Source of the DNA: a virus
DNA: 13,358 nucleotides
Strand: one strand, 5' to 3'
Virus record (IMG/VR): IMGVR_UViG_3300045988_053599
Coordinates: 1 to 13,358 of that record
This document shows positions 1 to 13,358 of the stretch, in pieces. The translations under genes were made by a program, and so were the position numbers. Under the pieces are notes generated by a model. That model saw nothing but the letters and a program-made list of their open reading frames with translations. It searched no databases and was not told the origin of the DNA. Position 1 is the stretch's first letter; each line of letters starts with the position of its first letter.

Positions 1-120
1 GGGACACGTAATAGCATTTTGCACAAAATTTTTCCCCCAATCGCATATATTTTTGTGCAATCTGCTAGTGCCCGCATATAACAGTACCCACACCCCTGCC
101 GGGTAGGGGAGTGGGTATGA
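1..120. repeat. Left inverted terminal repeat (ITR), 120 bp
   Basis: Bases 1..120 are the exact reverse complement of 13239..13358. Identity breaks at base 121 (tctag..) versus the mirrored acaca... The terminus begins GGG. Confidence 0.97.
85..117 (-). terminator. Imperfect hairpin at the inner edge of the left ITR; possible terminator for the last late gene
   Basis: tacccacacccct (85..97) pairs with aggggagtgggta (105..117), a 13-bp stem with one A/A mismatch and a 7-nt loop. It lies 34 nt downstream of the stop at 151 on the minus strand and is followed by CTGTTATAT, only a weak U-tract. Confidence 0.3.
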
Positions 121-150
121 TCTAGTAATGATTATGAAATATAAACGCTA

Positions 151-1422
151 TTACACAAACAACGAACACATTGTAAACGTTGGAATCTGAAGGGCGATCT
201 GTGTTACTCCTGTTAAATTGACATATGCACCCGTGTCGGGCAGTGTAACGTTTTGAATGGAGAGGTCCGTACCTTTAACCATCATTTGGCAGTTGATCTT
301 GTGGAATCCTCCATCACCCACGACATACCCTGTCGTCATAGTTTGGCAAGCCATAGCGATATCATACGGGCGACCGTATTTTGTCGAAAGCGTACCAATA
401 CTATACTTTGTGTCACCCTTAATTGTTTGTGATGCACAAGTAACGGTTAGTCGCTGGTCGTCTGCTTTTGCCAGTGTCCAGGTATTTGCATAAATGCACT
501 CAGAAAATCCACCCCATGAATATTTTGTGGCAATGCCAGCGGGTGCAAGCTCAATGCTGTTGTATGCAAATTGCGCGGCATAGGTGCCCGTTTTAATAGC
601 GCTTACAATAGCGCCCGCAAGTAACTGATACCCTGCATCATTGGGGTGAATGTTGTCGGACGAAAACAGTGTATAATTGTGCATGATCTGCTCACATCCC
701 GGCAGGTATGCACAGTTACTCTCACCACATGCGGCATATGCGGGCAGTACGTTATTGGCAATGTTGGCTCTGGCTTGCCTGTCCGGGCTCCATGCAATCA
801 TACCAATATGCACAATGGCATTAGGAAAATTTGTTTTGCAGAGCCCTGCAAAAGACGCAATGTCTGCCGTGATTGTGTTGCCGCTGTAGTTGTTATCATT
901 GTACCCACCGAAAACATAAATATCGGTGATTTCAGCCGGGGCCGGGATTGTGGGTAATACGGACGTTACAAGATCGGCAAATTTGTAGCCAACTCTGGAA
1001 AAACCATACCCTCCTTGACATGCTTTATAATAATCGCCCGTTGCAAGGCCCAGAATTTGCGGCACTTTTTGGGACCACCCCATACCAGGACTTACACCGG
1101 CCCCCTCTCCCATTGAATAGCTGTCACCGACAAATAGGTACTTTTTCGGGCGGGCGATGCTATGCAGGCCGTCAATCTCGTTTTGGAGCTTTTTGTCCGC
1201 CTGCTCGCGGGCGTTCTGCTCTGCTGTGATAGCCTGCTTGCGGGCGTTCTGCTCTGCCGTAATAGCCTGCTCGCGGGCGTTCTGCTCTGCTGTGATGGCC
1301 TGCTGCAGCTGTGTATCTGCATGCTCACGGGCGGTAATTTCGTCAGCAATCTGCTGCCGGGCGGTGGTGTCCTTAACATGGTAGGGGACCGCGTCAATGT
1401 TCATTTTGTCGAAATCTGCCAT
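151..1422 (-). CDS. Tail fibre/appendage protein with SGNH (GDSL) hydrolase domain
   Basis: ATG at 1422 preceded by GGAGG. SGNH blocks are visible: FVGDSYSMG (block I GDS), GGYNDN (block III GxND) and DNIHPN (block V DxxH). The N-terminus has three 11-aa repeats AITAEQNAR(E/K)Q, stalk-like. A C-terminal domain of about 150 aa is of unknown fold. Confidence 0.8.
   Translation of the reverse strand: MADFDKMNIDAVPYHVKDTTARQQIADEITAREHADTQLQQAITAEQNAREQAITAEQNARKQAITAEQNAREQADKKLQNEIDGLHSIARPKKYLFVGDSYSMGEGAGVSPGMGWSQKVPQILGLATGDYYKACQGGYGFSRVGYKFADLVTSVLPTIPAPAEITDIYVFGGYNDNNYSGNTITADIASFAGLCKTNFPNAIVHIGMIAWSPDRQARANIANNVLPAYAACGESNCAYLPGCEQIMHNYTLFSSDNIHPNDAGYQLLAGAIVSAIKTGTYAAQFAYNSIELAPAGIATKYSWGGFSECIYANTWTLAKADDQRLTVTCASQTIKGDTKYSIGTLSTKYGRPYDIAMACQTMTTGYVVGDGGFHKINCQMMVKGTDLSIQNVTLPDTGAYVNLTGVTQIALQIPTFTMCSLFV
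1199..1304. repeat. Tandem repeat, 33 bp x 3.2 copies, inside the SGNH fibre gene
   Basis: Units at 1199..1231, 1232..1264 and 1265..1297. Units 1 and 3 differ only at the last base and unit 2 has 3 substitutions. A 7-bp partial fourth copy follows. Each unit encodes AITAEQNAR(E/K)Q. Confidence 0.95.
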
Positions 1423-1433
1423 TGTTGACCTCC

Positions 1434-1673
1434 TTACTTAGAAGAAGCTGTGGCGTGTGTTGCGGTCGTAATTGTAATGGTTTCCGTCGAGGGGGTATAT
1501 TCTACAGTCACGCGGGAAAGCTTTTCAACCTCCTTAACTTTTTTCAGTGCCTCATTTGCCGTGGTTGCGGCATTAGAGGCTGCTGTGTTGGCGCTCTGTG
1601 CGTTGCTGCGGGCAGTGGGGTCTTTAACGGTAATATCCTGGCCGCCCAGATTAAAAGTAGTTACATCAGGCAT
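1434..1673 (-). CDS. Small fibre-like structural protein (Ala/Thr/Ser-rich), function unknown
   Basis: ATG at 1673 preceded by GGGAGG. The N-terminal motif VKDPTAR at residues 16-22 is in the same register as VKDTTAR in the 423-aa fibre. The gene sits between two fibre genes. Confidence 0.55.
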   Translation of the reverse strand: MPDVTTFNLGGQDITVKDPTARSNAQSANTAASNAATTANEALKKVKEVEKLSRVTVEYTPSTETITITTATHATASSK

Positions 1674-1678
1674 AATAG

Positions 1679-2320
1679 TTACCTCCCTGTAATGGTGATG
1701 GTTTGGTCCTCGGGGCTGTACACATGTACATCCCCGCCGTATATGGTGCTTGCCGCACTGGGCGGGAATCCTAGGTTAATACTTGTATCGCTGGCCCGGT
1801 ACCACGCAGTGGGCATATTGAACAGTCGGGAAATAAGGTCAACCACAGATACTTCGATGCAGTTTGTGCCAATAACCACAAGCGACGTCTGCGGGATGGG
1901 TTGGGGGTTTGTGCAAAGGACATCACCGACAAAAAACACGCTATTAGCAGGTAATTGTTCAGTAGCGGCCTGCCCGTTTTCCTGTTGCGGCACTGCCGTG
2001 ATAGCATTTTTAAGCGGGTTAATAAAATTTTGTAACGTGAATACGGGGGTCCAGTAGTCAGTATTTGTGATCTGCACCCCCTGGGGGACGGGCTGAACGG
2101 AAAGATATGCAGTGCCGTCCTGCGGGTCCAGAACCAGGGTGTTTTGCGCGTACTGGCTGGTGATGTCCCACTTAATGGGATCCGCATACTTAATTGTATT
2201 GAGGTTAACAAAATTTGCAAGTTTCCGATTGAATTCATTAAGCGCCTCAATAATCCAATCTAGGTTCATATCGTGGAAATTGGTATAGGGTGCTTTGTGA
2301 ATCGGATAAATGTCATTCAT
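1679..2320 (-). CDS. Putative tail fibre / receptor-binding (appendage-position) protein
   Basis: ATG at 2320 preceded by GGAGA. Its position just after the lower-collar candidate matches phi29 gene 12. The N-terminus (DMNLDWII...YWTPVF) resembles N-termini I recall from Firmicute phage fibre proteins, but this is unverified. Confidence 0.45.
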   Translation of the reverse strand: MNDIYPIHKAPYTNFHDMNLDWIIEALNEFNRKLANFVNLNTIKYADPIKWDITSQYAQNTLVLDPQDGTAYLSVQPVPQGVQITNTDYWTPVFTLQNFINPLKNAITAVPQQENGQAATEQLPANSVFFVGDVLCTNPQPIPQTSLVVIGTNCIEVSVVDLISRLFNMPTAWYRASDTSINLGFPPSAASTIYGGDVHVYSPEDQTITITGR

Positions 2321-2334
2321 TCGCTGTCATCTCC

Positions 2335-3024
2335 TTAATATACCAGCAGGCAAAAGTTTGCCTGAATATCTGCAACGATCTTATTCACCGCGTTTTTGGC
2401 GGCCAGGGTCAGCTCCTTGGCAATCAGGTCTTGCGGGTCTTTGCCCGCCCGGCCCTTTTCGGTCACGGTGTCTTTGTACCTATCCTGCGCTTTGGTGGTC
2501 CCGTCATTGGTAGTTGTCTGGTCGTCGGTGGTTGTGTCGGTGCCGGTGCTGGTGATCTTGTTACCGGTGCCCAGGGTGGTGGTACTCTTTTCGGCGGGCA
2601 CAAAGGTCCCGCTGTCAAAACCCGTCACATCCCTGGTAGTGTTGTCGCTGCCATTATTCTGGCCGATGGTGGTAAGGTCAGGGGTGCGGGTGGTTTTGCC
2701 TGCCACCACGTTTTTGCTGCTGTTGGTGCCGCTGTTGGTCCCCTTGTGCTCCACGGTCCTGGTGCGATCATCGGAGGCCAACACGTCATAGTCAAGGCCC
2801 AGGGCTTTTGCATACCGGGTCCAGCTGGGCAGCATGGTTTCCGAAAACACGCCCAAGGCCCTTTGCATGGTGGGGCCATCGGTATAAAGTACCTCCAGCT
2901 CCAACGTATCAAATAGCAGCTGGTTACATACCGTCTCTTTTGATACGCTGTCAGGGACTTTAAGGTCATCGAATAGTGGGGGGTATCCTGCTAGTAACCC
3001 GTTAAAGCTTAGTGTTGCGTGCAT
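2335..3024 (-). CDS. Putative lower collar / tail tube protein (phi29 gp11 position)
   Basis: ATG at 3024 preceded by GGAGG, overlapping the portal 3' end by 23 nt. It lies immediately downstream of the portal as in phi29. The central Thr/Gly/Asp/Asn-rich region is compatible with extended beta-hairpins. No sequence motif was verified. Confidence 0.45.
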   Translation of the reverse strand: MHATLSFNGLLAGYPPLFDDLKVPDSVSKETVCNQLLFDTLELEVLYTDGPTMQRALGVFSETMLPSWTRYAKALGLDYDVLASDDRTRTVEHKGTNSGTNSSKNVVAGKTTRTPDLTTIGQNNGSDNTTRDVTGFDSGTFVPAEKSTTTLGTGNKITSTGTDTTTDDQTTTNDGTTKAQDRYKDTVTEKGRAGKDPQDLIAKELTLAAKNAVNKIVADIQANFCLLVY

Positions 3025-3943
3025 TGTTGGTCACCTCCTGCATGCCGGTGTCGGGTGGGAATCTCCAATCAACCCACAGCTGCGATCTGTCAATCCCAAA
3101 AAGCTTGTGGACCCGCTCGCAGCTGCGCTGCAAGCTGTCCAGCCACAGCGACGCTTTTGCAGCCGTCTCCACGTTGTTGGAATTGACCTCATCGGTCAGC
3201 ATGCGCTCTTTTTTGCTTGTGTTGGTGTTGGGGATACCGACTTCGGTATCAAAAAGCGCCTTGATGGTTTTAAGGGCCGTCAACAGCTCGTTGGTGATGA
3301 AATTGCCTTTGAGGTCCGCTGAAAAGTACATCCACGGGGATTGACCGGAGGCCCCGGTCTTAGACGCTTTAAGCAAAGAGGAATCGACAAAAACAGCTGG
3401 GTCCCCCTGCATGATCTGATCAAACATTTTCTTAAAAGATTCCGCGCCCGCCTTGTTGCCTGCCGCGAACACATATGCCAAACGGCTGTTGATTAAATTG
3501 CTCTGGATGGTCTGGGCGGCAAGGGCCATTAGGTCCCCATAATATGCCACAATATCCACCATGCCCCTGTAATCAGGCTGCAGGTTGATGATCTCGCACT
3601 GCCTGCCAATCTGCAGATACGGGGAACCCTTGATAAAGGGATTTGCCACGATGGAGTGTGTGGGATTGTAAAAGATATTGATGCCGGTCAGTCCCATGCG
3701 ATCATATACCAGGCCGTACCGGTCGGTATCAAATACTGTTACACCGCCGGACCCGAATACCAGGTATTGCAAGCGGTTACTGGGCCAGGTTTCGGGCAGT
3801 GTCCACCGGACCATAGACACGGCTTCCAAAAACAGGTATTTTCGGAAATAGTATGACAGGTTGTTGCCCTTGGTGTGCATGACAGACGGTGTTACCGGTG
3901 ATACATGGGCATTGATCTGATCATAGCTATAGGGTGCACTCAC
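3002..3943 (-). CDS. Portal (connector / upper collar) protein, phi29 gp10-like
   Basis: 313 aa against 309 aa for phi29 gp10. The C-terminal block KKERMLTDEVNSN matches phi29 KKERMVTDEVSSN as recalled. A GTG start at 3943 overlaps the upstream stop (GTGA). An alternative ATG lies at 3880. Confidence 0.85.
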   Translation of the reverse strand: MSAPYSYDQINAHVSPVTPSVMHTKGNNLSYYFRKYLFLEAVSMVRWTLPETWPSNRLQYLVFGSGGVTVFDTDRYGLVYDRMGLTGINIFYNPTHSIVANPFIKGSPYLQIGRQCEIINLQPDYRGMVDIVAYYGDLMALAAQTIQSNLINSRLAYVFAAGNKAGAESFKKMFDQIMQGDPAVFVDSSLLKASKTGASGQSPWMYFSADLKGNFITNELLTALKTIKALFDTEVGIPNTNTSKKERMLTDEVNSNNVETAAKASLWLDSLQRSCERVHKLFGIDRSQLWVDWRFPPDTGMQEVTNNARNTKL

Positions 3944-4494
3944 AGCAGCTTGCCCCCCTTTGCCATCTTAAACAGCAGCCACACCGGCAGCTTGCCGGTG
4001 GGCCACGGGCCCGGCCCAGGACCCGGCCCCGGGGGATTGCTTGCATCCCATTCCACTTCCCAGGTCCCGACCTGGTTCGGGATTCCCAGAATCGCGGAGG
4101 GGTCCGTTCTGTTGGCGGTGCCATAGCCGCCTACCCAATATTCCCAGTGCGTGTGGATTCCGCTTGCGTTGCCGGTCTGGCCTTGCTGCCCAATAAATTG
4201 GCCGCGCGTGATCGTCTCGCCAACGCTGTGAATCTGCTTGGCAAAATGAGCTGCAAGCCAATAGCTGTTGTCGCTCATCTTGATCACGATATAATTGCCC
4301 CAGGAATCGTTGCCAGTTGTGCCGCCCTGCCACTTATGGGCTGTTACGACCGTACCGGCCATTGGTGCATATGCCTTGTGATCTTTATGCACTGTGTCAA
4401 TGCCACCATGGGGGCTGCCGTCAGAGTATGCGGGATATGCTGCAGATACTCTAATGGGTGACACTCCTGTGATACATTGCTTATATACTGCCAT
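3940..4494 (-). CDS. Peptidase M23 (LytM-type) peptidoglycan endopeptidase; tail-associated lysin and/or endolysin
   Basis: Zn-ligand motifs HGGID (HxxxD) and GIHTHWE (HxH), plus GQTGNASG. The ATG at 4494 has GGAGG 8 nt upstream. The track start at 4503 is GTG and lies inside that RBS. The C-terminus has a PPGPGPGPGP linker and a 21-aa hydrophobic-cationic tail. Confidence 0.85.
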   Translation of the reverse strand: MAVYKQCITGVSPIRVSAAYPAYSDGSPHGGIDTVHKDHKAYAPMAGTVVTAHKWQGGTTGNDSWGNYIVIKMSDNSYWLAAHFAKQIHSVGETITRGQFIGQQGQTGNASGIHTHWEYWVGGYGTANRTDPSAILGIPNQVGTWEVEWDASNPPGPGPGPGPWPTGKLPVWLLFKMAKGGKLL

Positions 4495-4506
4495 TATAAA
4501 CACCTC

Positions 4507-5919
4507 CTACTCAAGGAAAAATCCATTGCGCAAAAAGCTTTTGACGCTGTCGATCTCGGCAGCCGTCGCCGGTAAAGCAAGATCCGGGTCGTCGACCATG
4601 ATAAAGCCCGGAATCGTGGACAGCTGCACACGCTGGCACAGTGGCCGACCATGGTCCTCGTTGTTGTCGTCCACGATCTCATAAAATGCACCGGTCAAAT
4701 ATGGGGTGATACCGTATTTTGCGACGCTGGCCCCTCCGCCTTTGGACTGGCTGGTGACGGTGGTTTGCTGGGCACCGGAGGCTATGCCGTTGGCAATGTC
4801 GCCGTTTCCGAAAAAGGACGCAATGCCGCCAGCCACAGCACCCACCGCCGTTTGAATCAGGCCGCCAACGCTGGCCAGCTCATTGACGTTAGTCGCGATC
4901 TGCGCCAGCTGCACCGGCACTGCCACGTTGCTGGACGTGGAAAAGACGATGGTACTAAAATCTTGCTTAAATGACACATCCAGGACCGCATCGCCGGTGC
5001 GGTAGTCAACCGTCAAACGGCAGTGTAATGTGCTTTGCCGCACAAACAAGTTAGCATTTAACTTGATCTCGCCAAAGGGCGGGCAGTACAGCGTGTACTC
5101 GGAATATGGTGCCCCGTCTGTGTACGCGCCTCTTGTGTTGAGCTGCGGGTGGTGTGGGGTCGCAATACTAAATGTAAATACCTGTTTGTCGTTGCTGTTT
5201 TGTATAACATAAGCGTTCCCGACGTTCTGCAGTTTCCACCAACCGACGGGGATGTCGGTAATGGGGGTGCCGATACCGGCGTTGCCGCACGGAATCCAAA
5301 ACGCTTTGGAGATATACTGGATGGGATTAAACAGCGCTTTAGTAAGGTTGCTGCTGATCTCCTCCGAACTAATATTAAGATAGTCGGTATTCTGCAGGAG
5401 GGCGGCCATGAGCTTTTGAAATGAGGTACCGCTCATTGCCAGATAAATGGCCCCGCCAAAAGACACATATCCAGGGGCGTTGACCACCACAACAAAAAAA
5501 CCAATATTGCCCTCAGGGTCATCGGAAAACGGTGTGGTACTTGCCTTTACGGTCTTGAGGGTCAGGGGTGCTTTGGTCGGGTACAAACTATCTGTAATAT
5601 TGCCGTCATACTTGGCGGACGATCTCACAACGTACTCTGTAGCGCTGCTGATCTCGTCCCGGTAACTTGCAAGGGTGTCGACGGTCAAGGATGCAATCCA
5701 GCGCGCGTCCGAATATGTCCAGTTTTTAATCCAGTAGTACCGGCCAAAAATGGGGATATTGCAATAATTGTACCCGGTGGGGTTGCTCTCTGTAGCAATC
5801 TTAATTTCAGGGTCGATGATGGTACACGGGGATTTTAGGTTGATCTCAAACGTTCGCCCGCCGGTGGGCAGCTTGGTACTGTTTGAGCGCTTGGTGATCT
5901 GGTAAAATACTGCTTGCAT
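4507..5919 (-). CDS. Tail knob / distal tube protein, phi29 gp9-like
   Basis: ATG at 5919 preceded by AAGGAGGTG. Its position follows the capsid gene as gene 9 does in phi29. The N-terminal domain pattern (GRYYWIKNWTY...LTVDTLASY) resembles the gp9 N-terminus (NKWFYAFVTELEF...EIDVLQTW, as recalled). Residues 348-400 form a Gly/Ala-rich hydrophobic segment. Confidence 0.65.
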   Translation of the reverse strand: MQAVFYQITKRSNSTKLPTGGRTFEINLKSPCTIIDPEIKIATESNPTGYNYCNIPIFGRYYWIKNWTYSDARWIASLTVDTLASYRDEISSATEYVVRSSAKYDGNITDSLYPTKAPLTLKTVKASTTPFSDDPEGNIGFFVVVVNAPGYVSFGGAIYLAMSGTSFQKLMAALLQNTDYLNISSEEISSNLTKALFNPIQYISKAFWIPCGNAGIGTPITDIPVGWWKLQNVGNAYVIQNSNDKQVFTFSIATPHHPQLNTRGAYTDGAPYSEYTLYCPPFGEIKLNANLFVRQSTLHCRLTVDYRTGDAVLDVSFKQDFSTIVFSTSSNVAVPVQLAQIATNVNELASVGGLIQTAVGAVAGGIASFFGNGDIANGIASGAQQTTVTSQSKGGGASVAKYGITPYLTGAFYEIVDDNNEDHGRPLCQRVQLSTIPGFIMVDDPDLALPATAAEIDSVKSFLRNGFFLE

Positions 5920-5936
5920 GTTGCATACACCTCCTT

Positions 5937-5971
5937 ATAAAATAACCGGCGGGAGCAAATGCCCCGCCGGT
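5937..5971 (-). terminator. Rho-independent terminator after the capsid gene
   Basis: Minus strand reads ACCGGCGGG-gcatttgct-CCCGCCGGT, a 9-bp GC stem with a 9-nt loop, followed by TATTTTAT. It starts 6 nt after the capsid stop codon. Confidence 0.7.
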
Positions 5972-5976
5972 GCCGG

Positions 5977-7251
5977 TCAGGACTTAGAGGGGTCTGCGTC
6001 CTTGTGCATGGTGGTTTTGAGGGTGGAGGCTTTGGCCGCGCGGCCCGTGCTGGGCGCGGTCACGTCGCCCGCCGTCATCAAAAACAGGACGGCGTTTTCG
6101 GTAAAATCGTCGTACCAGCTCCAGCCGTAATGATACCAGAAATTGGTATACAGGCCGCGCGCGTTCATCGGCGTGGGGACGACGCGGGACAGCTTCGGAG
6201 TGTAGCCGATTGCGTCCCAGTCAAGCAGACAGCCAAACACGTTGGTCAGCTGCACGGCTGCATTTTTGGTTGCCACGCCGGCGGTACTGGTAACAACAGG
6301 GGTTGCGGCGATCGTTTCGCGGTCGTCGATGTCCTGCCAAAACGTGACCTGTTCCGCGTCACGGTACCGGAGCATGTCATCGTGGAATACCTCCGGAATA
6401 ACGCGGGCATCAATCTGGCTCTGAGTGCCGCTGTACAGATACAGGTGCTGGCGATCATACGGGGTATGCCGCATAATGTTGTAAGTCTTGCTGCCGATCG
6501 TCCAGTTCTGGTGCCAGTTGATCGTGCGTTCTTTCATCAAGCGGGAAATGTCGTTGATACGCCCGTATGCAAACTTAGCAAATCCGGGGAAATTGGCCTC
6601 TTTGTACACGTCGGCAACCGTGAGCTTGGTGCCCTGCTGGGCGTTGTACTCATCCAGCAGGTAAATAACGCTTTTGGGGCTGGTGACAGTCATGCCGGTC
6701 AGGTGGTTGGCCATCAGGTTGTTGGCCAGGTTGCGCCGGTCGGCCTCGATCTGGTTGGACAGATGGAGGACAAACGAGGACCAAAACTGTGCCAGCTCTT
6801 CGGGCCCCTTAAATGCCGCCTGCATTTGAGTGTCAGCCTGGGTGTACACGCGGCTATAGTTGGTCTGACCATAATAGTTGGTCTGCAGGACCTGGGGCTT
6901 GTGTACCTCGTACATGTCGACGCTATCGCCATCTTCCAGGGCCCAGGCTTTATCCGTCACGGGGTCAGAATCGCAAAAATTGATCTTGCGAACGTGGTTG
7001 GTCCAGTCGTCGCCGGTAACCTGCAGGCGCTTCATCGGCGCGTCATAGGGCCGGACCGCAAAAATAGTGCGGCCCAGCACCTGGCTGATTGCCTTGGTGT
7101 AGTTGTCGGGGCCGGTCAGCAAAGTGGCCTGCGCGACAGATACAAAACTTGAGGTGTCCACGATGGGAGACGTGGGCTCCTGGCCAGTTGCCATCTTGTT
7201 GATCTCGGTCAAAATTGCGGCAATGTCCGCAAAACTCATACCAAGCGGCAT
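5977..7251 (-). CDS. Major capsid protein, phi29 gp8-like (HK97 fold family)
   Basis: ATG at 7251 preceded by GGAGG. The C-terminal block ARGLYTNFWYHYGWSWYDDFTENAVLFL aligns with phi29 gp8 [28 protein letters not shown] as recalled. The 424-aa protein has no C-terminal Ig-like extension. Confidence 0.85.
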   Translation of the reverse strand: MPLGMSFADIAAILTEINKMATGQEPTSPIVDTSSFVSVAQATLLTGPDNYTKAISQVLGRTIFAVRPYDAPMKRLQVTGDDWTNHVRKINFCDSDPVTDKAWALEDGDSVDMYEVHKPQVLQTNYYGQTNYSRVYTQADTQMQAAFKGPEELAQFWSSFVLHLSNQIEADRRNLANNLMANHLTGMTVTSPKSVIYLLDEYNAQQGTKLTVADVYKEANFPGFAKFAYGRINDISRLMKERTINWHQNWTIGSKTYNIMRHTPYDRQHLYLYSGTQSQIDARVIPEVFHDDMLRYRDAEQVTFWQDIDDRETIAATPVVTSTAGVATKNAAVQLTNVFGCLLDWDAIGYTPKLSRVVPTPMNARGLYTNFWYHYGWSWYDDFTENAVLFLMTAGDVTAPSTGRAAKASTLKTTMHKDADPSKS

Positions 7252-7252
7252 C

Positions 7253-7636
7253 TTATTTCACCTCCTGCCCAAAAGTGGGGTCAATAATCCGGGCCGTCAC
7301 CGTGCTTGCATCGGCTGCGGGCTGCTGCTGGATACCAAGGCCCAGCGCGTTGGCCTGCATGGTCTGGGTCATGGTCTGCATTGCCTGGGTGGTGGACTGC
7401 TGACCCTGCAAAATCTGCTGCAGCAGAGCTTCAAGGCCATCATACTGGCCGACGGGCTGCGGGGCGGGCTGCGGTGCGATCTGCTTGGCGGGCGGAGCCG
7501 CCAACGGCGGGACCTGCTGCGGGATAGCAGGATTCTGCACAGCTGCGGGGGCCGTCTGCGTGGGCTTGTCCATGGCCTCAATCTCGGCTTTGGTGTACCC
7601 GGCCATGGCAAGGGCCGCTTTTTCACTGATTTTCAA
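7253..7636 (-). CDS. Putative scaffolding protein
   Basis: Immediately upstream of the capsid gene. Composition is Gln/Pro/Ala-rich with helical ends. The best start is TTG at 7636, with GGAGG 9 nt upstream. The track start at 7669 has no RBS. Confidence 0.55.
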   Translation of the reverse strand: MKISEKAALAMAGYTKAEIEAMDKPTQTAPAAVQNPAIPQQVPPLAAPPAKQIAPQPAPQPVGQYDGLEALLQQILQGQQSTTQAMQTMTQTMQANALGLGIQQQPAADASTVTARIIDPTFGQEVK

Positions 7637-7856
7637 CTTTTTTCGCCTCCATAATAACGTACATGTCATGTGCCAGGCACTTAACTACCTGGTCTTTGTC
7701 GCCTTTGGTGACAGGACCCACGGCGCAACACTGCCGCGTGCGGGCATCGTTGGCCCAGTCACTGTAGTAGCCGATACCCAAACGAGTGCACAAGTCAGCC
7801 AGCAAGTATGCACGTTCGTTCGTAATCGACTGGGCAAAAATAATATAGCATCCCAT
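7623..7856 (-). CDS. Hypothetical protein (77 aa)
   Basis: ORF in the operon frame series. The ATG at 7856 follows a weak AAGGGTG RBS. The track start at 7865 is GTG. No recognisable motif. Confidence 0.5.
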   Translation of the reverse strand: MGCYIIFAQSITNERAYLLADLCTRLGIGYYSDWANDARTRQCCAVGPVTKGDKDQVVKCLAHDMYVIMEAKKVENQ

Positions 7857-7861
7857 GGCGA

Positions 7862-8017
7862 TCACCCTTTTTTAATGTCGTCCAAGGCCACACGCATTTC
7901 AGTAATAGCTGCCGTGTTTTCTTTGACGACCGTGTTGCACTGATACCACATCAGCAAAAATGCCGCGATCGGAAAACCCACGTTAGAAATAGCCTGTAAA
8001 ACAGTGTTAGCATCCAT
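7862..8017 (-). CDS. YvrJ-like small membrane protein (51 aa); holin candidate
   Basis: ATG at 8017 with GGAGG 8 nt upstream. It has one hydrophobic helix, and the motif SNVGFPIAAFLLMWY resembles the N(V/Y)GFPI core of the YvrJ family (PF12841) as I recall it. It is the first gene after the non-coding gap. The 83-aa track ORF is an upstream GTG extension through structured RNA. Confidence 0.45.
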   Translation of the reverse strand: MDANTVLQAISNVGFPIAAFLLMWYQCNTVVKENTAAITEMRVALDDIKKG

Positions 8018-8040
8018 TTTGTGCACCTCCGTAAAAATAT

Positions 8041-8122
8041 GAATAGAATAAAATCCCCGGTTCTTGCGCTGGCTGACGCCTGCCCGCCCCTTCTGGGGGC
8101 TGCCTTTGGGCACCGGGGATTA
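8041..8122 (-). ncRNA. Structured RNA element (9-bp closing stem around three small hairpins) ending in a U-tract; candidate small RNA, leader attenuator or terminator
   Basis: On the minus strand, AAUCCCCGG (8121..8113) pairs with CCGGGGAUU (8060..8052). The stem encloses UGCC-CAAA-GGCA, GCCCC-CAGAA-GGGGC and GCAGGC-GUCA-GCCAGC, and is followed by UUUAUUCUAUUC. It starts about 6 nt after the -10 box. Confidence 0.45.
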
Positions 8123-8127
8123 TCTTT

Positions 8128-8155
8128 ATTATATTCGATTGTTGGATAAAGTCAA
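8128..8155 (-). promoter_or_regulatory. Near-consensus sigma-A/sigma-70 type promoter
   Basis: Minus strand reads TTGACT (8155..8150), a 16-nt spacer, then TATAAT (8133..8128). The -35 box overlaps the ATPase TGA stop codon. Confidence 0.6.
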
Positions 8156-9216
8156 GTGGCGCTGCAGTATTCCCGAAAAAATATTTCATCCGAATACCGC
8201 TCAAACTCAATTTGCCGCTGCAGATATGCGGGCCAGATATACCCATAAGCGGCCCGGAATCGTTTCCGCTCATAGTCGCCGGAGCCGTACATTGGCATTT
8301 CGCCGGAGCGGTGCCGACATACATAATATATGGGCTTGCTTTTATGCTCATAGATACAGCACCGACCGATCTGCACAAGTGGGTAATATTCGCGCAAGGG
8401 ACGGGATACCACCAGGCTTTTTTCCTCGGCGCTGTACTGGTTTTCAATGGCCGACCGGTAAAAGTCGGTCCCGCTCATGGACCGGTACAGGGCCGTATTT
8501 GCTTTTTCTTTGGCGATGGGGCTGTCCACCAAGTCAATCAGCAATATGCCCTTGTCTTTTAACAGCTTCACGCGCTCTTTTTTGCCGATCATCCGTTCCA
8601 CGGTGTCGGTAATATCCCATTGCATATAGTAGGGGTTTGCCATGCCCACGGCATTCGACATGCACAACAGCGTGATGGGTTTTTGTCCTTGCAATTCTCG
8701 GTTACGGTTGACCGTTTCGTATATATTCGCAAGGCCCACGCCCTCACCGCGCCGGTAATAGTCGGATTCTTCTTTTTGGTATTCATCCAGGATTATAATG
8801 TCAGTATTGGGGCTCGAAAAGCCACGGGTGCGGGCCATGGTGACAACATTGCCCAGCACACCCGACATCTGCGCCGGTCGAATAGGGACCCCGGTGTCAG
8901 TATAGGCCCCGGCGTTGCCCACCTCGTACATGCCAGCAATTTTGGACATTTTGAAAGGTGCATAATGTGTTTGCAGGTCATTATTTAAGGGGGACCACGG
9001 CCACATGAGCGGCGACGAACATATCAACTCTGCCTGCTGTGGCGTGCGACGCAAGTACAAAAACTCTTCCTCTTTTTCGTGCACGTGCTTGAGGGCTCCA
9101 TACGTTTTGCCGGTGCCGCGCCCGCCCCAGATAAAAATGATGGGGGCACCGGTGGATAGAATGCCGTCATCCTCTGAAAAGTTGGGCCAGCCCTCGTCTG
9201 TATAAAGCTTAATCAT
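8152..9216 (-). CDS. DNA packaging (encapsidation) ATPase, phi29 gp16-like
   Basis: Walker A GGRGTGKT and Walker B DIIILDE. The protein is 354 aa against 332 aa for gp16. The ATG at 9216 has GGAGG 7 nt upstream and overlaps the polymerase stop (TGATG). The track start at 9219 is TTG. Confidence 0.85.
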   Translation of the reverse strand: MIKLYTDEGWPNFSEDDGILSTGAPIIFIWGGRGTGKTYGALKHVHEKEEEFLYLRRTPQQAELICSSPLMWPWSPLNNDLQTHYAPFKMSKIAGMYEVGNAGAYTDTGVPIRPAQMSGVLGNVVTMARTRGFSSPNTDIIILDEYQKEESDYYRRGEGVGLANIYETVNRNRELQGQKPITLLCMSNAVGMANPYYMQWDITDTVERMIGKKERVKLLKDKGILLIDLVDSPIAKEKANTALYRSMSGTDFYRSAIENQYSAEEKSLVVSRPLREYYPLVQIGRCCIYEHKSKPIYYVCRHRSGEMPMYGSGDYERKRFRAAYGYIWPAYLQRQIEFERYSDEIFFREYCSAT

Positions 9217-11210
9217 CAAACTACCTCCATGATCTTGTACCCCAGTATCCTGGCGTACTCGTCGGTAATGCCCAGAGTGTATGTATTATCACAAATACAT
9301 AGGTTGCGGGTTATGTGGACCTTGTGGCCGTCAACTACAAAATCTGGGACCTTTGGCCGATCATTATAAATGACCTGGTTGCCAGCAGCCAGGCAAAACG
9401 TAAAGCCTGGCTTAAAGGCATCAAACCCACCCCAGAGGGCCAGTTCAAGGCCGCCTTTGCGCTTGCTAACTCCAGCTATTGTGGTTGTAATCCTGCCGCC
9501 TTTGGTGTAGGTGGTCGCGTATTTTTTCGCACCCCATGTCATAAACTCGGCGTAACTGCGTTCCTGCTCGTACACGCCCATATAGTGCACATGCCCTTTG
9601 GGGTCTGTAGCACAGGCACCATTATCTTTTGCAAGCTGTTTCACGGCCTTGTTAAATTCCGTCAAGTCAATGTCACCCATGTACTTGACGCTGTCAGTAT
9701 CACAGTACACGCCATTTTTGCCTGCGGCCCATTGTGCGATCTTGAGGCGCTTGCGCGTGTGGGCCGTGGTCCAAACTCCCCATTGATACGGCAAAAACAG
9801 GTGTGGGCAGTGATCGTTATAGCTGCCCTCCGGGTCGTCGGTGCACTCACTCCACAGGTTGTCGGGGTCGTCCTCGTCAAAAAGCGTATCCAGCTGCAGG
9901 GGGTCTTGTGCTGTCATGCCGTAATAACTATTAAGGTCGCCTTTGGATTTGACATAGTACAACTCTTGACCGGCCACGCCTTTTAAAGATGTCTTGCCGG
10001 TGTAGCTCTCTTTGACGCAATCTGTCAAGGGCTTTGGCAGCTTGCCATAGTCGGACGTGTACAAGTCCAGCACATTAAGAGCATCCCAGTCGTACTCCTT
10101 GGCGATAATCCTAAAATCAATATCGGTGATAGTAATTTCAAAATGATCGGCAGACAGCAAGCGGCCGTTGTCGTTTACATACCCCTCGCAGTGTCGCACC
10201 TTTGCAAGGGGAATGTAGGGGAATCCCCACCACTTAAACCGCTGACGTAATCCTTTGATCTGCAAGCGCATCAAGCATGCCTTGCTGTGCCGCATACATT
10301 GCATGAGACGCTGCACCGTGGCCGGTTCCTGCCGAAATGGTGTCATGGGGAAATAGCACTCGCATTGCACTGCAGGATAAGCGCTTGACATATCGACAGA
10401 CCCAACGTTTTCCAGATGGAGACCGACATAATAACGATTGGCATGTGTGTCACCGCCCCGGAATGCCTCGCGCAACATCTGGTACAGTTCCCAGGACGGC
10501 AGCAGGCGCTTAACTCGGTTAATGCCCCATTTGTACATCGCCTGCCGCGCCATGCGTCGGACGTATCCGGTTCGCGTCAACGGCAAAGTGTACAGATCAT
10601 CTCCATCGCGCTCCATCTCAATCAGCAGGCACTCCACAATGCACCGCACGTCATTGATACAATACGCCAATTCTGTGGATGACAGCGGGGTCCAGGGATA
10701 CCGGACTTTGGAGTAGTCAAGGGCCCCTGTTAATTTTGCATGAGGCGCTCCCAGCTGTTTGCCCCATGCGTCAAGGGACAGATTGCTGTGTCGCATACTG
10801 CACCGGTATTCTATGGCGCGGTTGTCACATTTCAAAACTCGCCGGGGTTTGCTGGCAAACACTTCACCGGGGCCAAAAGTCATGACCCCGGAAAGGTACT
10901 GAAACTCATGAGCAAGGTTATGCACATACATGCAGAGATACCAGGTACCTTGTGGCCCACTATTGGCCCGCAAGTAGTCGCTGATCGTGTCGGTAAAATG
11001 TAGCCATTCGTCCCACGTCCTGCCGATGATCGTAACATCCAAACCAAGCTGACACTGCCAGATATACATGATAGTATGGGGGTTACCGTCAACGTCAGTA
11101 CAAACTCGGCTGGTTTCAATGTCAAACGCACACGGCATATTAACGTACAGCCGCTTTTTGTTCGTTTTGCGCTTTTTGCCCTTGGTGTGCTTGCAATCCA
11201 AGTGCTCCAT
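9216..11210 (-). CDS. Protein-primed family B DNA polymerase
   Basis: Motifs seen are Exo I FDIET, Exo II-like HNLAHEF, Exo III YCINDVRCI, motif A DMSSAYP, motif B KGDLNSYYG, motif C YCDTDS and KKY. The start is uncertain. ATG at 11210 is the first ATG after the upstream stop at 11233. The track start at 11486 is TTG and overlaps the upstream gene by 254 nt. ATG at 11138 is also possible. Confidence 0.93.
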   Translation of the reverse strand: MEHLDCKHTKGKKRKTNKKRLYVNMPCAFDIETSRVCTDVDGNPHTIMYIWQCQLGLDVTIIGRTWDEWLHFTDTISDYLRANSGPQGTWYLCMYVHNLAHEFQYLSGVMTFGPGEVFASKPRRVLKCDNRAIEYRCSMRHSNLSLDAWGKQLGAPHAKLTGALDYSKVRYPWTPLSSTELAYCINDVRCIVECLLIEMERDGDDLYTLPLTRTGYVRRMARQAMYKWGINRVKRLLPSWELYQMLREAFRGGDTHANRYYVGLHLENVGSVDMSSAYPAVQCECYFPMTPFRQEPATVQRLMQCMRHSKACLMRLQIKGLRQRFKWWGFPYIPLAKVRHCEGYVNDNGRLLSADHFEITITDIDFRIIAKEYDWDALNVLDLYTSDYGKLPKPLTDCVKESYTGKTSLKGVAGQELYYVKSKGDLNSYYGMTAQDPLQLDTLFDEDDPDNLWSECTDDPEGSYNDHCPHLFLPYQWGVWTTAHTRKRLKIAQWAAGKNGVYCDTDSVKYMGDIDLTEFNKAVKQLAKDNGACATDPKGHVHYMGVYEQERSYAEFMTWGAKKYATTYTKGGRITTTIAGVSKRKGGLELALWGGFDAFKPGFTFCLAAGNQVIYNDRPKVPDFVVDGHKVHITRNLCICDNTYTLGITDEYARILGYKIMEVV

Positions 11211-11232
11211 GAGCCACGGCACGGGGTTGTAA

Positions 11233-11832
11233 TTACAAGCCTCCACCAAAACCTCCGCGCAAGTCGGCGGAGCTGCTGCCGTCGCTATAGTCCCAGTCTT
11301 TGCCATAACTGACCTCACCTTGCTGCCATTTGACAAAATCGTCAATGCTGACATTATAACCGCCTTTTTCGCGCCAGTACATGACGGGCTGATCTGACGG
11401 ATAATAGTACACACCGGAGGCCTTGACGATCTCCCACCATTCGGACAGGGCCGTGTACTGATCTTCGGGGACCTCCGACACGTCAATGCCGCCGACTTTC
11501 ATTTTTTCGGTAAATTCCTCACGGGCACCGCCCACCGTGGACCCTTTGGAGCGGACAAACCGCGCAACATCGGCAAGGGCTTGTTCAAGCGCTTTGCGAT
11601 CTCCGCGCATTGCTTTGATGGTAGGGAAGCCTCCGGCAAATTCTTTATAAATGTCGCTCGTGCTGCTGATGGGGTCCTTTGACAGTCGCTTGATACGTTT
11701 CTGGGCAATGTCACGCAATCGCGTGTATTCCTTGCGCATCTCGCGGTCAGGCCATGATTCTAGGGCATACGGGGTATATAGTTCCGCGTCATATTTAAGT
11801 GTTGCGCTTGCTTTGGCTGCACCTACGGCCAT
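11233..11832 (-). CDS. Putative terminal protein (replication primer)
   Basis: Directly upstream of the polymerase, as phi29 gene 3 is. The basic N-terminal block RKEYTRLRDIAQKRIKRLSK resembles phi29 TP KAEYARLVKNTKAKIARTKKK. The C-terminal DWDYSDG resembles the phi29 priming-serine context EFDSEG. Both phi29 sequences are recalled from memory. ATG at 11832; the track start at 11841 is GTG. Confidence 0.55.
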   Translation of the reverse strand: MAVGAAKASATLKYDAELYTPYALESWPDREMRKEYTRLRDIAQKRIKRLSKDPISSTSDIYKEFAGGFPTIKAMRGDRKALEQALADVARFVRSKGSTVGGAREEFTEKMKVGGIDVSEVPEDQYTALSEWWEIVKASGVYYYPSDQPVMYWREKGGYNVSIDDFVKWQQGEVSYGKDWDYSDGSSSADLRGGFGGGL

Positions 11833-12040
11833 GCTTCTCACGTTCCTTTCTTTCCAATATCATCAGATACCAGTCTAGGGGATCTGTTTCAATGCCAAGA
11901 TACCGAAACAGGGACCGGGCCCAGTCGGAACAAAAAAACTTCACGTCCTTTTCGATCACTCCGCTGTATACAATGGCCATTGCAAGGGCCTCTATAGGGT
12001 CTTCACTTTCCAGCAGTACGGACCTGTTAATGCTTTTCAT
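11795..12040 (-). CDS. Hypothetical early protein (81 aa), in the phi29 gene 4 position
   Basis: ATG at 12040 preceded by GGAGA, immediately after a terminator. It has a basic C-terminal tail and overlaps the terminal-protein gene start by about 38 nt. No motif recognised. Confidence 0.5.
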   Translation of the reverse strand: MKSINRSVLLESEDPIEALAMAIVYSGVIEKDVKFFCSDWARSLFRYLGIETDPLDWYLMILERKEREKHGRRCSQSKRNT

Positions 12041-12051
12041 GATGATCTCCT

Positions 12052-12084
12052 AACAAAAAGGCCACAGCACTTAGTGCTGTGGCC
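12052..12084 (-). terminator. Strong rho-independent terminator inside the early gene block
   Basis: Perfect 11-bp stem, ggccacagcac (12060..12070) with gtgctgtggcc (12074..12084), and a 3-nt loop. On the minus strand it is followed by TTTTTGTT. It starts 10 nt after the stop of the 145-aa gene. Confidence 0.8.
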
Positions 12085-12094
12085 ACCGGTCAAA

Positions 12095-12532
12095 TTAAAC
12101 CAGGTACAGGGACAGGACCTGACCCTTCTTGGTGCTGATCAGCACGGGCTTGATCTTCACAGGTTCGGCCCAGGTGTCCGGGGTGCCCAGCAGCGTAAAC
12201 ATGCGTTTGAGCGACTGGTAAACACCGACGGACACACACGCGTACGACTGGCCGTCCTCCGTGATGAGGACAATACGCGGGGCGATCACCTTGTCCTCCG
12301 GTGCATCCTCCTTGCTGACCTCCACGCATTCCACAGACACATGCACCAAGGACAGTACCTCGTTGACGTGCTCTTTCAGCTTGTTGACGGGGTTGCTTGT
12401 CGCGTTATAAAACGCAACTGCTGCAGAGCGGTCAGTAAGATTCATGTCGGTGTACCCAAGACCGGTATTCATCACATCAGCCACCGTCATAGCGGTACCA
12501 GTGTTTTCGGATTTGGTCATTGCTTCAGACAT
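12095..12532 (-). CDS. Putative ssDNA-binding protein, phi29 p5-like
   Basis: ATG at 12532 preceded by AAAGGAG. The C-terminal half resembles phi29 p5 as recalled: EDGQSYACVS versus ADGSLYSAIS, and VKIKPVLISTKKGQVLSLYLV versus FKVKVVQGTSSKGNVFFSLQLSL. Its position upstream of the TP and polymerase genes matches phi29 gene 5. Confidence 0.45.
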   Translation of the reverse strand: MSEAMTKSENTGTAMTVADVMNTGLGYTDMNLTDRSAAVAFYNATSNPVNKLKEHVNEVLSLVHVSVECVEVSKEDAPEDKVIAPRIVLITEDGQSYACVSVGVYQSLKRMFTLLGTPDTWAEPVKIKPVLISTKKGQVLSLYLV

Positions 12533-12570
12533 AATACAAAACTCCTTTCATTTGGCCCTGTCATCATCAG

Positions 12571-12610
12571 TACCGGGCGGGCGGTCCCGGTAGACGGCCC
12601 GGAGGGCCGT
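12571..12610 (-). other. Two adjacent GC-rich hairpins in the 5' leader of the SSB-like gene
   Basis: acggccc/gggccgt (12594..12610) forms a 7-bp stem with a 3-nt loop. taccggg/cccggta (12571..12592) forms a 7-bp stem with an 8-nt loop. They are separated by 1 nt and no U-tract follows. Confidence 0.5.
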
Positions 12611-12615
12611 TTCGA

Positions 12616-12882
12616 CTAATGCTGAAAAATTTGTGCATATTTTCTGTACATCTTTTCGGCCCCATCTCGTACAAGGGTAGCACCCCGACGCATTAAACAT
12701 ACCTCTGCACTGTTGCCTTTAAGCAATTCAACTTGTTCAGCGCAATGACTAAGAGCTTGCCGGTACCCAGACAGCCACGAGCGATCATTAGCAACTCTAA
12801 TAGCGTTCTCGGAATCCTCATACTCGCAGCACGTCACATGACCATCCGGGTGGATTTCAACGATAAACTTGCGCATTTCCAT
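12616..12882 (-). CDS. Hypothetical early protein (88 aa)
   Basis: ATG at 12882 preceded by GGAGA, 4 nt after the upstream stop. No motif recognised. Confidence 0.55.
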   Translation of the reverse strand: MEMRKFIVEIHPDGHVTCCEYEDSENAIRVANDRSWLSGYRQALSHCAEQVELLKGNSAEVCLMRRGATLVRDGAEKMYRKYAQIFQH

Positions 12883-12885
12883 CTG

Positions 12886-13122
12886 TCACATCTCCTTAAA
12901 GCTCCATTCGGCATTCAAAGCCTCTTCAAAATCGGGGTTGCTGCCGTTACATGCTTCGGTGGCATAGTCGTCAATGTAGTGGACATCTTCCACCAAGTAG
13001 GCACCATCAGCATCACGGTCAAGGGACCCGGCATTCAGGTACTCTTCGACGAAATCCATGCCGGTGTTATTGTCATACATATGGACCTCTGCAGTATGGC
13101 CCAGTGCGTCTTTAATAATCAT
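12886..13122 (-). CDS. Hypothetical strongly acidic early protein (78 aa)
   Basis: ATG at 13122 preceded by AAAGGAGA. It is the first gene downstream of the right-end promoter. It has 19 Asp/Glu against 3 Lys/Arg. Confidence 0.6.
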   Translation of the reverse strand: MIIKDALGHTAEVHMYDNNTGMDFVEEYLNAGSLDRDADGAYLVEDVHYIDDYATEACNGSNPDFEEALNAEWSFKEM

Positions 13123-13160
13123 GGTAATTATCTCCTTTCATCCGGTGTGGCCTCTTTCTT

Positions 13161-13179
13161 GGTACAATTATAGTGTACC
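13161..13179 (-). promoter_or_regulatory. Candidate early promoter -10 box embedded in an operator-like palindrome
   Basis: Minus strand reads GGTACAC-TATAAT-TGTACC. The perfect TATAAT (13172..13167) sits between the inverted arms ggtaca (13161..13166) and tgtacc (13174..13179). It lies about 45 nt upstream of the first ATG. No good -35 box was found (ATGTAC at 17-nt spacing). Confidence 0.4.
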
Positions 13180-13238
13180 ACATTCTATAGTACATATGTT
13201 GCTATAAACACTACAAAACCGTACAAAAATTGCTGTGT

Positions 13239-13358
13239 TCATACCCACTCCCCTACCCGGCAGGGGTGTGGGTACTGTTATATGCGGGCACTAGCAGATT
13301 GCACAAAAATATATGCGATTGGGGGAAAAATTTTGTGCAAAATGCTATTACGTGTCCC
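13239..13358. repeat. Right inverted terminal repeat (ITR), 120 bp
   Basis: Exact reverse complement of 1..120. Confidence 0.97.

Follow-up and report, generated by a model that had tools for sequence, protein, structure and literature searches.

Termini, gene complement, and two conserved structured RNAs of a 13,358-bp phi29-like phage genome from an uncultured human-gut lineage

The IMG/VR virus record IMGVR_UViG_3300045988_053599, analyzed here over its whole length of 13,358 bp (hereafter the window), begins and ends with one and the same sequence in inverted orientation and encodes phi29-type proteins in between. This locus raises the question of whether such a small stretch is an entire linear replicon or a fragment, and of how genes arranged on a single strand would be expressed from it. 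We consider it very probable that the window spans the complete genome (linear double-stranded DNA) of a virulent, phi29-like podophage from a common, uncultured lineage of the human gut. This reading is based on a perfect inverted terminal repeat (ITR), a one-strand gene set of the phi29 type, and the coincidence of the termini with contig ends in many independent assemblies. We also put forward, as a tentative proposal, that this lineage runs its gene expression with two dedicated RNAs, namely an active hammerhead ribozyme that makes a separately dosed mRNA for the single-stranded DNA-binding protein (SSB) and a new 70-nt structured RNA.

Alignment of the window with its own reverse complement revealed that positions 1-120 and 13239-13358 are 100% complementary over 120 nt, in agreement with the perfect 120-bp terminal repeat that had been reported in a preliminary description made from the letters alone. 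The two ends are identical as far in as position 120 and diverge directly thereafter, and the next-best inverted pair in the window covers 34 nt at 71%. Independent assemblies were used as a proxy for reads in judging whether these ends are real. A search of IMG/VR with the family-B DNA polymerase (PolB) of the window identified at least 233 related stretches, and the best 80 of them, all with at least 91% PolB identity, were examined. The contigs of these 80 relatives pile up at 13.0-14.1 kb, and terminal inverted repeats of 55-173 nt were found in 36 of 81 related loci. In several relatives the repeat arms are imperfect (129/140 and 153/164); since these arms differ by mismatches and indels, the repeats are not duplications introduced by an assembler. 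The sequence ACGTAATAGCA was located near 41 contig ends, including the two ends of the window, and 20 of them stop exactly at GGGAC-ACGTAATAGCA and none further. When all of IMG/VR was scanned for GGGACACGTAATAGCA, the 16-mer turned up 38 times in 31 contigs; 33 of these 38 copies lie exactly at a contig end, and six contigs carry the motif at both ends. The exact fiber protein of the window was encountered in seven contigs from different samples, four of which are whole contigs of 13.2-13.5 kb, and the independent assembly L095 stops 1 nt short of the terminus of the window. Based on these sequence comparisons, we concluded that GGGACACG... most likely represents the physical end of the DNA and that the window is a complete replicon; the earlier claim of an entire linear phi29-like replicon rather than a fragment is thus borne out by many unrelated assemblies that stop at the same terminal base.

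The anatomy of the repeat was obtained from an alignment of 22 complete contig ends. The terminal 16-mer GGGACACGTAATAGCA is almost invariant. Further inside, TTGCACAAAA (19-28) and TTTTGTGCAA (51-60) form a conserved inverted pair 22 nt apart, and the inner edge of the ITR is occupied by a GC-rich hairpin (88-116), the pairing of which is kept in relatives through the compensatory change of CCCAC/GTGGG to CCCAT/ATGGG. Folding of the ITR strand yielded a z score of -4.5 against shuffled sequences. The repeat begins with GGG, a reiterated terminal base, and by analogy this would fit the reiterated end that protein-primed systems require for sliding back. In a comparison of the ends of L004, L013, L020, L039, and other loci, bases 1-73 were found to be capable of folding back on themselves in this clade.

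The window encodes 18 genes, all of them on the minus strand, and Shine-Dalgarno (SD)-like motifs (GGAGG, AGGAG, or AAGGA) precede 16 of the 18 chosen starts. In the PolB translation, the Exo I-III, Dx2SxYP, Kx3NSxYG, and YCDTDS motifs are visible; the protein matches PF03175 (DNA_pol_B_2; 8e-8, 32 bits vs a cutoff of 25.8) and phrog_1907 (1.3e-40), and its sole match among PDB sequences is the phi29 DNA polymerase 1XHX (1.3e-5). The packaging ATPase matches Podovirus_Gp16 (PF05894; 2.7e-14, above cutoff) and phrog_2150 (7.5e-26). For the 470-aa knob protein no sequence match was obtained, PDB sequences included, and it was assigned by its fold: in a Foldseek search with the AlphaFold2 (AF2) model (pLDDT 60), the top four matches were all phi29 gp9 (5fb5/5fb4/5fei; E 2e-6, probability 1.0), and the first non-gp9 match appeared at E 0.04. 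The replication, packaging, and virion gene set listed in the preliminary description was therefore recovered by profile for PolB, the gp16 ATPase, the gp8 capsid protein, the gp10 portal, and the fiber and by fold for the gp9 knob, whereas its terminal protein (TP) and scaffold are position-based assignments.

The TP candidate is the 199-aa product of the gene upstream of polB, assigned by position only. It is predicted to be all-helical with a disordered C-tail (AF2 pLDDT 74), and an alignment of its homologs contains two invariant residues in this tail, S189 and S191 (Ser-x-Ser; numbering of the 202-aa open reading frame (ORF) 11233-11841). These homologs are about 199 aa long and are all located on contigs of 15 kb or less, with up to 4,426 members in one cluster. 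Searches of Pfam, PHROG, PDB sequences, and PDB folds gave no match to the candidate. Homology to the phi29-type TP or to the upstream protein of the Amedibacillus phage AD70P2 was tried by hhalign, which returned only a 20-residue basic-helix resemblance with a probability of 1% or less, and is not claimed.

The sole Rfam family found in the window is a type II hammerhead ribozyme, which occupies the space that separates the SSB gene from the second early ORF. The sequence itself shows the core (CUGAUGA ... GAAA ... GUC, the last being the cleavage triplet) and three helices, of which stem II is open-ended; the predicted cut follows C17 and falls between 12593 and 12592. In 77 of the examined loci the element occupies the corresponding position. 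Among 47 distinct sequences, 99.2% of the cells are paired (99-100% in stems I-III), and five pairs exhibit compensatory change, as compared with 1.8 +/- 0.8 in shuffles; three of them belong to stem I, one to the pseudoknot, and one is the core tertiary pair C3-G8. The latter occurs as C-G in 29 sequences, U-A in 14, and U-G in 4, and is never broken. The pseudoknot between GCCC of loop I and GGGC of the 3' tail is paired at 97% and includes one compensatory change from C-G to U-A (L030); its pairs are almost invariant, and hence the covariation evidence for it is thin. One contig with a PolB of only 60% identity begins with a truncated copy, and no hammerhead was detected in relatives whose PolB identity does not exceed 46%, in AD70P2, or in a Bacillus phi29-like phage. 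A loose regular expression for hammerheads was uninformative and was replaced by BLAST and covariance-model searches.

With respect to topology, core, pseudoknot, and intergenic phage placement, the copy in the window has much in common with the type II hammerheads of bacteria and prophages (PMC3088659; RF02276), from which it differs in its fixed site just upstream of the SSB gene and in its occurrence in a protein-primed, 13-kb, lytic-type lineage. The loop I/3' tail pseudoknot was described by Perreault et al. (2011), who also proposed that phage hammerheads process long transcripts (PMC3088659). No hammerhead of a protein-primed phage was reported in the papers covered by a full-text literature search. 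Nucleotide similarity to the GenBank record MT836263.1 and to many IMG/VR relatives ends exactly at the 5' edge of the ribozyme (12617/12618), suggesting that the two upstream early ORFs are a swappable module and that the ribozyme marks a mosaic junction. Neither of these two small ORFs has relatives in any family library, and PADLOC gave no match for them.

The second structured RNA, a 70-nt element, is present in 88 of 88 related loci examined. Its pairing was assessed in 30 distinct sequences with 500 shuffles and with slid controls. In total, 99.7% of the cells pair, and P1 and P3 together contain six pairs with compensatory changes (e.g., CCCCGG/CCGGGG to CCCAGG/CCUGGG, CCUCGG/CCGAGG, and CUCAGG/CCUGAG), a number that was reached by 0 of the 500 shuffles, with slid controls giving 0-1; P2 and P4 are invariant. 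For the copy in the window, the same structure is the minimum free energy fold (-40.3 kcal/mol, z -4.0) and accounts for 42% of the ensemble. The substitutions in the element include at least nine G.U wobbles that pair only in the gene-sense (minus-strand) RNA. Among the IMG/VR matches listed, the invariant P4 motif was found only in contigs of this lineage and at the same position. The element has no match in Rfam, even at E up to 10 on the stretch alone, and its covariance model found nothing in relatives with PolB identity of 46% or less, AD70P2 included. The preceding sigma-70-like site is presumed to be the promoter of the structural operon; its TTGAC/TTGAT and TATAAT/TATATT boxes are kept in nearly all 88 related loci, and the promoter region was matched by BLAST in all 83 related loci. 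Because the closing stem starts approximately 7 nt after the -10 hexamer, the RNA would form the very 5' end of the transcript.

As the likeliest role of the 70-nt RNA we consider that of a cis-acting attenuator or antiterminator or of a 5' stabilizer of the structural operon, followed by that of a discrete small RNA. A substitute for the phi29 packaging RNA (pRNA) is less likely and is ranked last, since there is no similarity to the Rfam pRNA and no complementary loop pair was seen. The pRNA family itself was searched for at E up to 1 over the whole window and at E up to 10 at 8052-8121, with no match. Of two terminator-like hairpins, the one following the SSB gene has BLAST matches in 26 relatives, including a stem variant with both arms changed (GGCCGCAGC/GCTGCGGCC), and the hairpin following the capsid gene has matches in 75 relatives.

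The conserved RNAs could, alternatively, be non-functional. The hammerhead would then be a decaying relic, as might be suggested by a stem II of only 3 bp and by the finding that approximately 40% of the relatives examined have UUGAUAA for CUGAUGA and fall below the Rfam threshold; it is this U3-A8 form that causes Rfam to miss the element in MT836263.1 and L033. However, UUGAUAA is a double change (C3U and G8A) by which the tertiary pair is kept, and Perreault et al. (2011) reported that this covariation occurs naturally and that such ribozymes are active in vitro (PMC3088659); the unbroken C3-G8 pair likewise argues against decay. The 70-nt element, for its part, could act at the DNA level, could encode the N-terminus of an 83-aa ORF (7862-8113), over which one gene caller (L096) indeed extends its prediction, or could be a terminator or stabilizer hairpin, and P2 and P4, which never vary, offer no covariation evidence to the contrary. 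This is contradicted by the compensatory nature of its stem substitutions, by the wobbles that pair only in the minus-strand RNA, and by the lack of an SD motif before GTG 8113. In view of these data, loss or lack of RNA function appears unlikely.

In the scheme that we propose for the complete linear genome, the TP, probably the 199-aa product, would be attached covalently to each 5' end, as in phi29, Cp-1, and PRD1. By the same analogy, a PolB-TP complex would initiate at the ITR, where the 3'-CCC end would permit initiation at an internal C followed by sliding back, each strand would be copied by strand displacement with SSB coating the displaced strand, and the gp16-like ATPase would package the TP-DNA via the gp10 connector into the gp8-type capsid. 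Transcription from the right end leftwards would yield an early unit in which the variable pair of small genes is followed by the hammerhead, then by the SSB gene, and lastly by a strong terminator. The SSB mRNA released by self-cleavage would begin with a 5'-OH and the stem I hairpin and end with the terminator; it may serve as a stable message, dosed on its own, for the protein that is required most. Cleavage would also uncouple, or insulate, the SSB output from the variable upstream genes, which is consistent with nucleotide similarity ending at the 5' edge of the ribozyme. The TP, PolB, and ATPase genes would be expressed by read-through, the strong sigma-70-like promoter would start the structural operon with the conserved four-helix leader RNA, and the terminator after the capsid gene would lower the dose of the tail genes.

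Among species-representative genomes, six matches were identified, all of them stand-alone contigs of 4.8-13.8 kb (five of 12.7-13.8 kb) that had been binned into mutually inconsistent metagenome-assembled genomes (MAGs) of Collinsella, Prevotella, Butyricicoccus, and others. Homologs of two window proteins reach, in the clusters listed, only contigs of about 15 kb or less. The binning of related contigs into bacterial genomes, together with the existence of phi29-like phage-plasmids in Enterococcus (PMC11476376), could point to a linear plasmid, a phage-plasmid, or an excised or integrated prophage of a gut bacterium. We consider this very improbable, because the MAG assignments disagree, all six contigs stand alone with no homolog on a longer contig in those clusters, no integrase, partition, toxin-antitoxin, or repressor-like gene was found among the 18 ORFs, and the genome is taken up by a full set of genes for virion and lysis.

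With regard to the host of this phage, the scan of genome contigs gave only phage contigs mis-binned into unrelated MAGs, and the fiber has almost no informative relatives among cultured phages. The organisms behind the M23 domain matches in the phage collection are dominated by Gram-positive genera. Judging from the strong GGAGG-type SD sites, these M23 lysin matches, and the relatives described below, a Gram-positive host is likely; an anaerobe of the gut with medium GC content would be expected. The preliminary description had pointed to a Firmicute host by its GGAGG sites and a YvrJ-like gene; the SD motifs stand, but the 51-aa protein matches Pfam YvrJ at 0.008 and 16 bits, below the cutoff of 29.5, and phrog_4898 (holin) at 1.7e-5.

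Several observations weigh against the interpretation of the window as a complete genome or against the scheme built on it. In L094 (ENA ERZ27259813 k141_138470), 78 nt of unrelated AT-rich DNA (11414-11491) extend past the terminus; this is the only contig with foreign DNA outside the terminus, probably through a chimeric join. The terminal motif is also overrun by 1-55 bases in a few contigs, among them L099 (25 nt), L105 (9 nt), and L071 (55 nt at both ends). The ITR of L071 (1-56 and the other end) is approximately 161 nt long and lacks the GGGAC-AC start, and its outer bases may be a genuine terminus of another kind. Similarity of the TP candidate to the phi29 TP was detectable neither in sequence nor in fold, and the lack of a pRNA match means that packaging may differ from that of phi29. 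The early promoter is only weakly defined, the protein-linked 5' end is postulated by analogy, and cleavage by the ribozyme, the ends of the transcripts, and what the terminators do are predictions from the sequence. Other irregular contigs are L115 and L122, with extra internal copies of the terminal motif, and L063 7101-12234 (IMGVR_UViG_3300045988_033841, 18,010 bp), the sole relative in a contig of more than 15 kb. The knob and capsid genes recur on the opposite strand of the latter, suggesting that its parent contig is a fold-back artefact rather than a larger genome, and the contigs that run past the terminal motif or carry internal copies of it look like artefacts in general. Such fold-back and chimeric assemblies do occur in the lineage, and an assembler product would also give a perfectly identical ITR, but the notion that the ITR and the completeness of the window are themselves artefacts, with the window being a fragment, or a genome of circular or concatemeric form to which the assembler added inverted copies of its ends, is hardly credible given that dozens of independent assemblies from different samples and assemblers end at the same base, that all of them are colinear and none is circularly permuted, that the ITR arms of relatives differ by substitutions and indels, that the ITR has a conserved internal anatomy, and that such ends are exactly what a protein-primed PolB predicts.

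Table 1. Genes, RNAs, and other elements assigned in the window, from left to right
Feature	Coordinates	Strand	Evidence or remark
Left ITR	1..120	.	Self-comparison; 22 contig ends aligned; folding
Tail fiber/receptor-binding protein with SGNH (GDSL) esterase domain, 423 aa	151..1422	-	Lipase_GDSL_2 PF13472 6e-8; tail-fiber PHROGs
Small coiled-coil protein, 79 aa	1434..1673	-	Weak Alanine_zipper match, 8.5e-4
Tail-associated protein, 213 aa	1679..2320	-	No family match
Lower-collar (gp11) candidate, 229 aa	2335..3024	-	Position after portal gene
Portal/upper collar connector, phi29 gp10 type, 313 aa	3002..3943	-	Phage_connector PF05352 1.9e-16; phrog_2038 6.6e-26
M23 metallopeptidase (cell-wall hydrolase), 184 aa	3940..4494	-	PF01551 3.4e-13; like peptidase domain of phi29 gp13
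Tail knob, phi29 gp9-like, 470 aa	4507..5919	-	Fold match only
Terminator-like hairpin, 10 pairs, then TATTTTAT	5945..5971	-	Directly after capsid gene
Major capsid protein (MCP), phi29 gp8 type, 424 aa	5977..7251	-	Phi29_MCP PF25622 3.5e-16 (above cutoff); phrog_2006 1.3e-10
Scaffold candidate, 127 aa, Q/A/P-rich	7253..7636	-	Position (adjoins capsid gene, upstream) and composition only
ORF, 77 aa	7623..7856	-	No clear SD
Small membrane protein, holin-like, weakly YvrJ-like, 51 aa	7862..8017	-	SD before ATG 8017
70-nt structured RNA, 10-bp closing stem around three hairpins, then U-rich stretch	8052..8121	-	RNAalifold
Sigma-70-like site TTGACT-16-TATAAT	8128..8155	-	Best in window, 11/12 matches; between ATPase gene and structural genes
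gp16-like DNA packaging ATPase, 354 aa	8152..9216	-	Start overlaps PolB stop
Protein-primed family-B DNA polymerase	9216..11306	-	Start ATG 11306 or TTG 11249, uncertain
Terminal-protein candidate, 199 aa from ATG 11832	11233..11832	-	Position: upstream of, and overlapping, PolB
ORF, 81 aa	11795..12040	-	ORF call only
Terminator-like hairpin, 11 pairs, then TTTTTGTT	12060..12084	-	Directly after SSB gene
SSB, phi29 p5-like, 145 aa	12095..12532	-	Pfam Phi29_Phage_SSB 3.5e-9; phrog_6243 1.1e-18
Type II hammerhead ribozyme	12552..12617	-	Rfam RF02276, 45.9 bits vs gathering 37, model positions 1-66 of 66
Early ORF, 88 aa	12616..12882	-	UAG stop overlaps first hammerhead bases
Early ORF, 78 aa, variable module	12886..13122	-	SD motif; no family match
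Right ITR	13239..13358	.	Exact reverse complement of 1-120

The remaining genes are those of the virion, lysis, and tail (Table 1). The 51-aa version of 7862-8017 is called in three of four assemblies. The lower-collar candidate has no Pfam, PHROG, or PDB match; besides its position, it has a pairwise match to the equivalent AD70P2 protein (8e-9). The fiber end of the genome (151-2150) is the module most divergent from relatives, and the SGNH fiber has a single weak relative (32%) in the phage collection. A 33-nt tandem repeat (3.2 copies, 90% identity, 1199-1304; Tandem Repeats Finder) encodes QAITAEQNARE repeats in the N-terminal region of the fiber. The M23 peptidase contains the Pro-Gly repeat linker PGPGPGPGP (window 3955-3990), and the linker DNA of MT836263.1 (L001 3906-3996) consists of an expanded repeat of the GGGCCC type, in which many nested palindromes were scored. 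A tRNA gene search of the window was negative; the more distant small phi29-like gut contig MT836587.1 (L092, PolB 32%) carries a tRNA gene at 8491-8563.

Among GenBank records, MT836263.1 ("UNVERIFIED: Bacteriophage sp. clone scaffold_1796", human feces, Mexico, 13,058 bp) comes closest, with 79.9% nucleotide identity over 76% of the window. It is unannotated and has the gene order of the window, with protein identities of 92% for PolB and 91% for the MCP, and differs in its fiber module and its first two early genes; because it lacks ITRs, it is truncated. The IMG/VR uncultivated virus genomes L002-L081 have the terminal sequence, the hammerhead, and the leader RNA in common with the window. 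Among the complete genomes examined, L008 comes nearest (90.4% identity over 100%), and all 80 IMG/VR loci examined stay below the 95% species level, indicating that the window is a distinct species-level genome in a well-sampled genus-level cluster. Some protein clusters of the window comprise thousands of member sequences. The lineage is thus very common in the human gut, uncultured, and by no means rare, and the novelty suggested in the preliminary description was overstated in that the lineage is already abundant in public data; the description had also missed the single-strand gene layout and the two structured RNAs.

Polymerase and capsid comparisons, which the preliminary description had suggested, were used for placing the genome. 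The closest cultured relatives found are the Amedibacillus phages AD70P2 and AD70P3 (12.3 and 12.2 kb; Guelinviridae in NCBI). AD70P2 has nearly all of its genes on one strand and in the order of the window, with an approximately 200-aa protein, PolB, ATPase, capsid, a knob-size protein, portal, a collar-size protein, and fiber. The two phages are only 36% (PolB) and 27% (MCP) identical to the window, their GC content is 26.7% (PMC11476376), compared with 52.2% in the window, and AD70P2 has no detectable hammerhead or leader RNA and a putative TP that is not detectably similar to that of the window. With regard to Guelinviridae, the pairwise identities to HM2 and AD70P2/P3 are 33-36% for PolB and 27% for the MCP. 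The Astrithrvirus group (Salmonella astrithr, 11.6 kb; Pectobacterium DU_PP_III; Acinetobacter Phanie; Vibrio K58 g2, 10.4 kb) comes next in closeness and consists of phi29-related podophages of 10.4-11.9 kb with PolB and MCP identities to the window of 31-36% and 23-25%, respectively; unlike the window, these phages have a different gene arrangement, and their hosts are Gram-negative. The Bacillus phi29-like phages are remote, with a PolB identity of about 24% over 52% of the length.

The features shared by the window with phi29 and other Salasmaviridae (e.g., vB_BveP-Goe6, 19.1 kb) are a protein-primed PolB, a phi29-type SSB, the gp16 ATPase, the gp8 capsid protein, the gp9 knob, the gp10 connector, a gp13-like M23 domain, and a linear genome with inverted ends. 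Phi29 has a 6-bp ITR, a pRNA gene, divergent early and late operons, a head fiber, and the p4 activator. In contrast, the window has a 120-nt ITR, no pRNA match, one coding strand, no head fiber, and an ATPase gene directly after the PolB gene; a pRNA is annotated in the Goe6 record. As far as the sequence tells, the pRNA, the 18- to 20-kb genome, the divergent operons, and the close similarity to phi29 proteins that characterize Salasmaviridae (phi29 proper) are lacking, whereas the PolB, p8, p16, p10, p9 (fold only), and ITR of a phi29-like podophage in the broad sense (Evseev et al., 2024) are all present. The window would thus be closer to the small phages of the Guelinviridae and astrithr types than to classical Salasmaviridae.

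A 2024 review of this group counted more than 2,000 phi29-related sequences in about 30 capsid clusters, including many human-gut genomes of 12-15 kb, with an example of 13,382 bp and 49.8% GC for which Clostridia were suggested as host (PMC11476376). Because small cultured and gut relatives are known, the size, the long ITR, and the middle GC content of the window are unremarkable for this part of the group. The preliminary description had counted the window among the smallest tailed phages, which does not hold, as its size is normal for a clade containing K58 g2, astrithr, AD70P2/P3, and many gut contigs of 12-15 kb. Its estimate of a moderate to high GC content agrees with the computed 52.2% (0.46-0.58 per kb), but such a GC content is not unusual in this part of the group; similarly, the repeat is indeed much longer than that of phi29, yet a long ITR is ordinary among these relatives.

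The window provides one more complete species-level reference, with exact termini, for the prevalent, uncultured, and unclassified tiny protein-primed phages of the gut, which helps their taxonomy. A hammerhead at a fixed position in a minimal phage operon offers a clean natural system for asking what the hammerheads of bacteria and phages do. The 70-nt leader RNA, unannotated and strongly covarying, is a candidate for a new RNA family and bears on late-gene timing or DNA packaging in phi29-like phages that are without p4 or pRNA. If the proposed plan of expression is true, this RNA could represent a new functional class, for example, a cis-acting attenuator or antiterminator by which late expression is timed, a task that falls to p4 in phi29.

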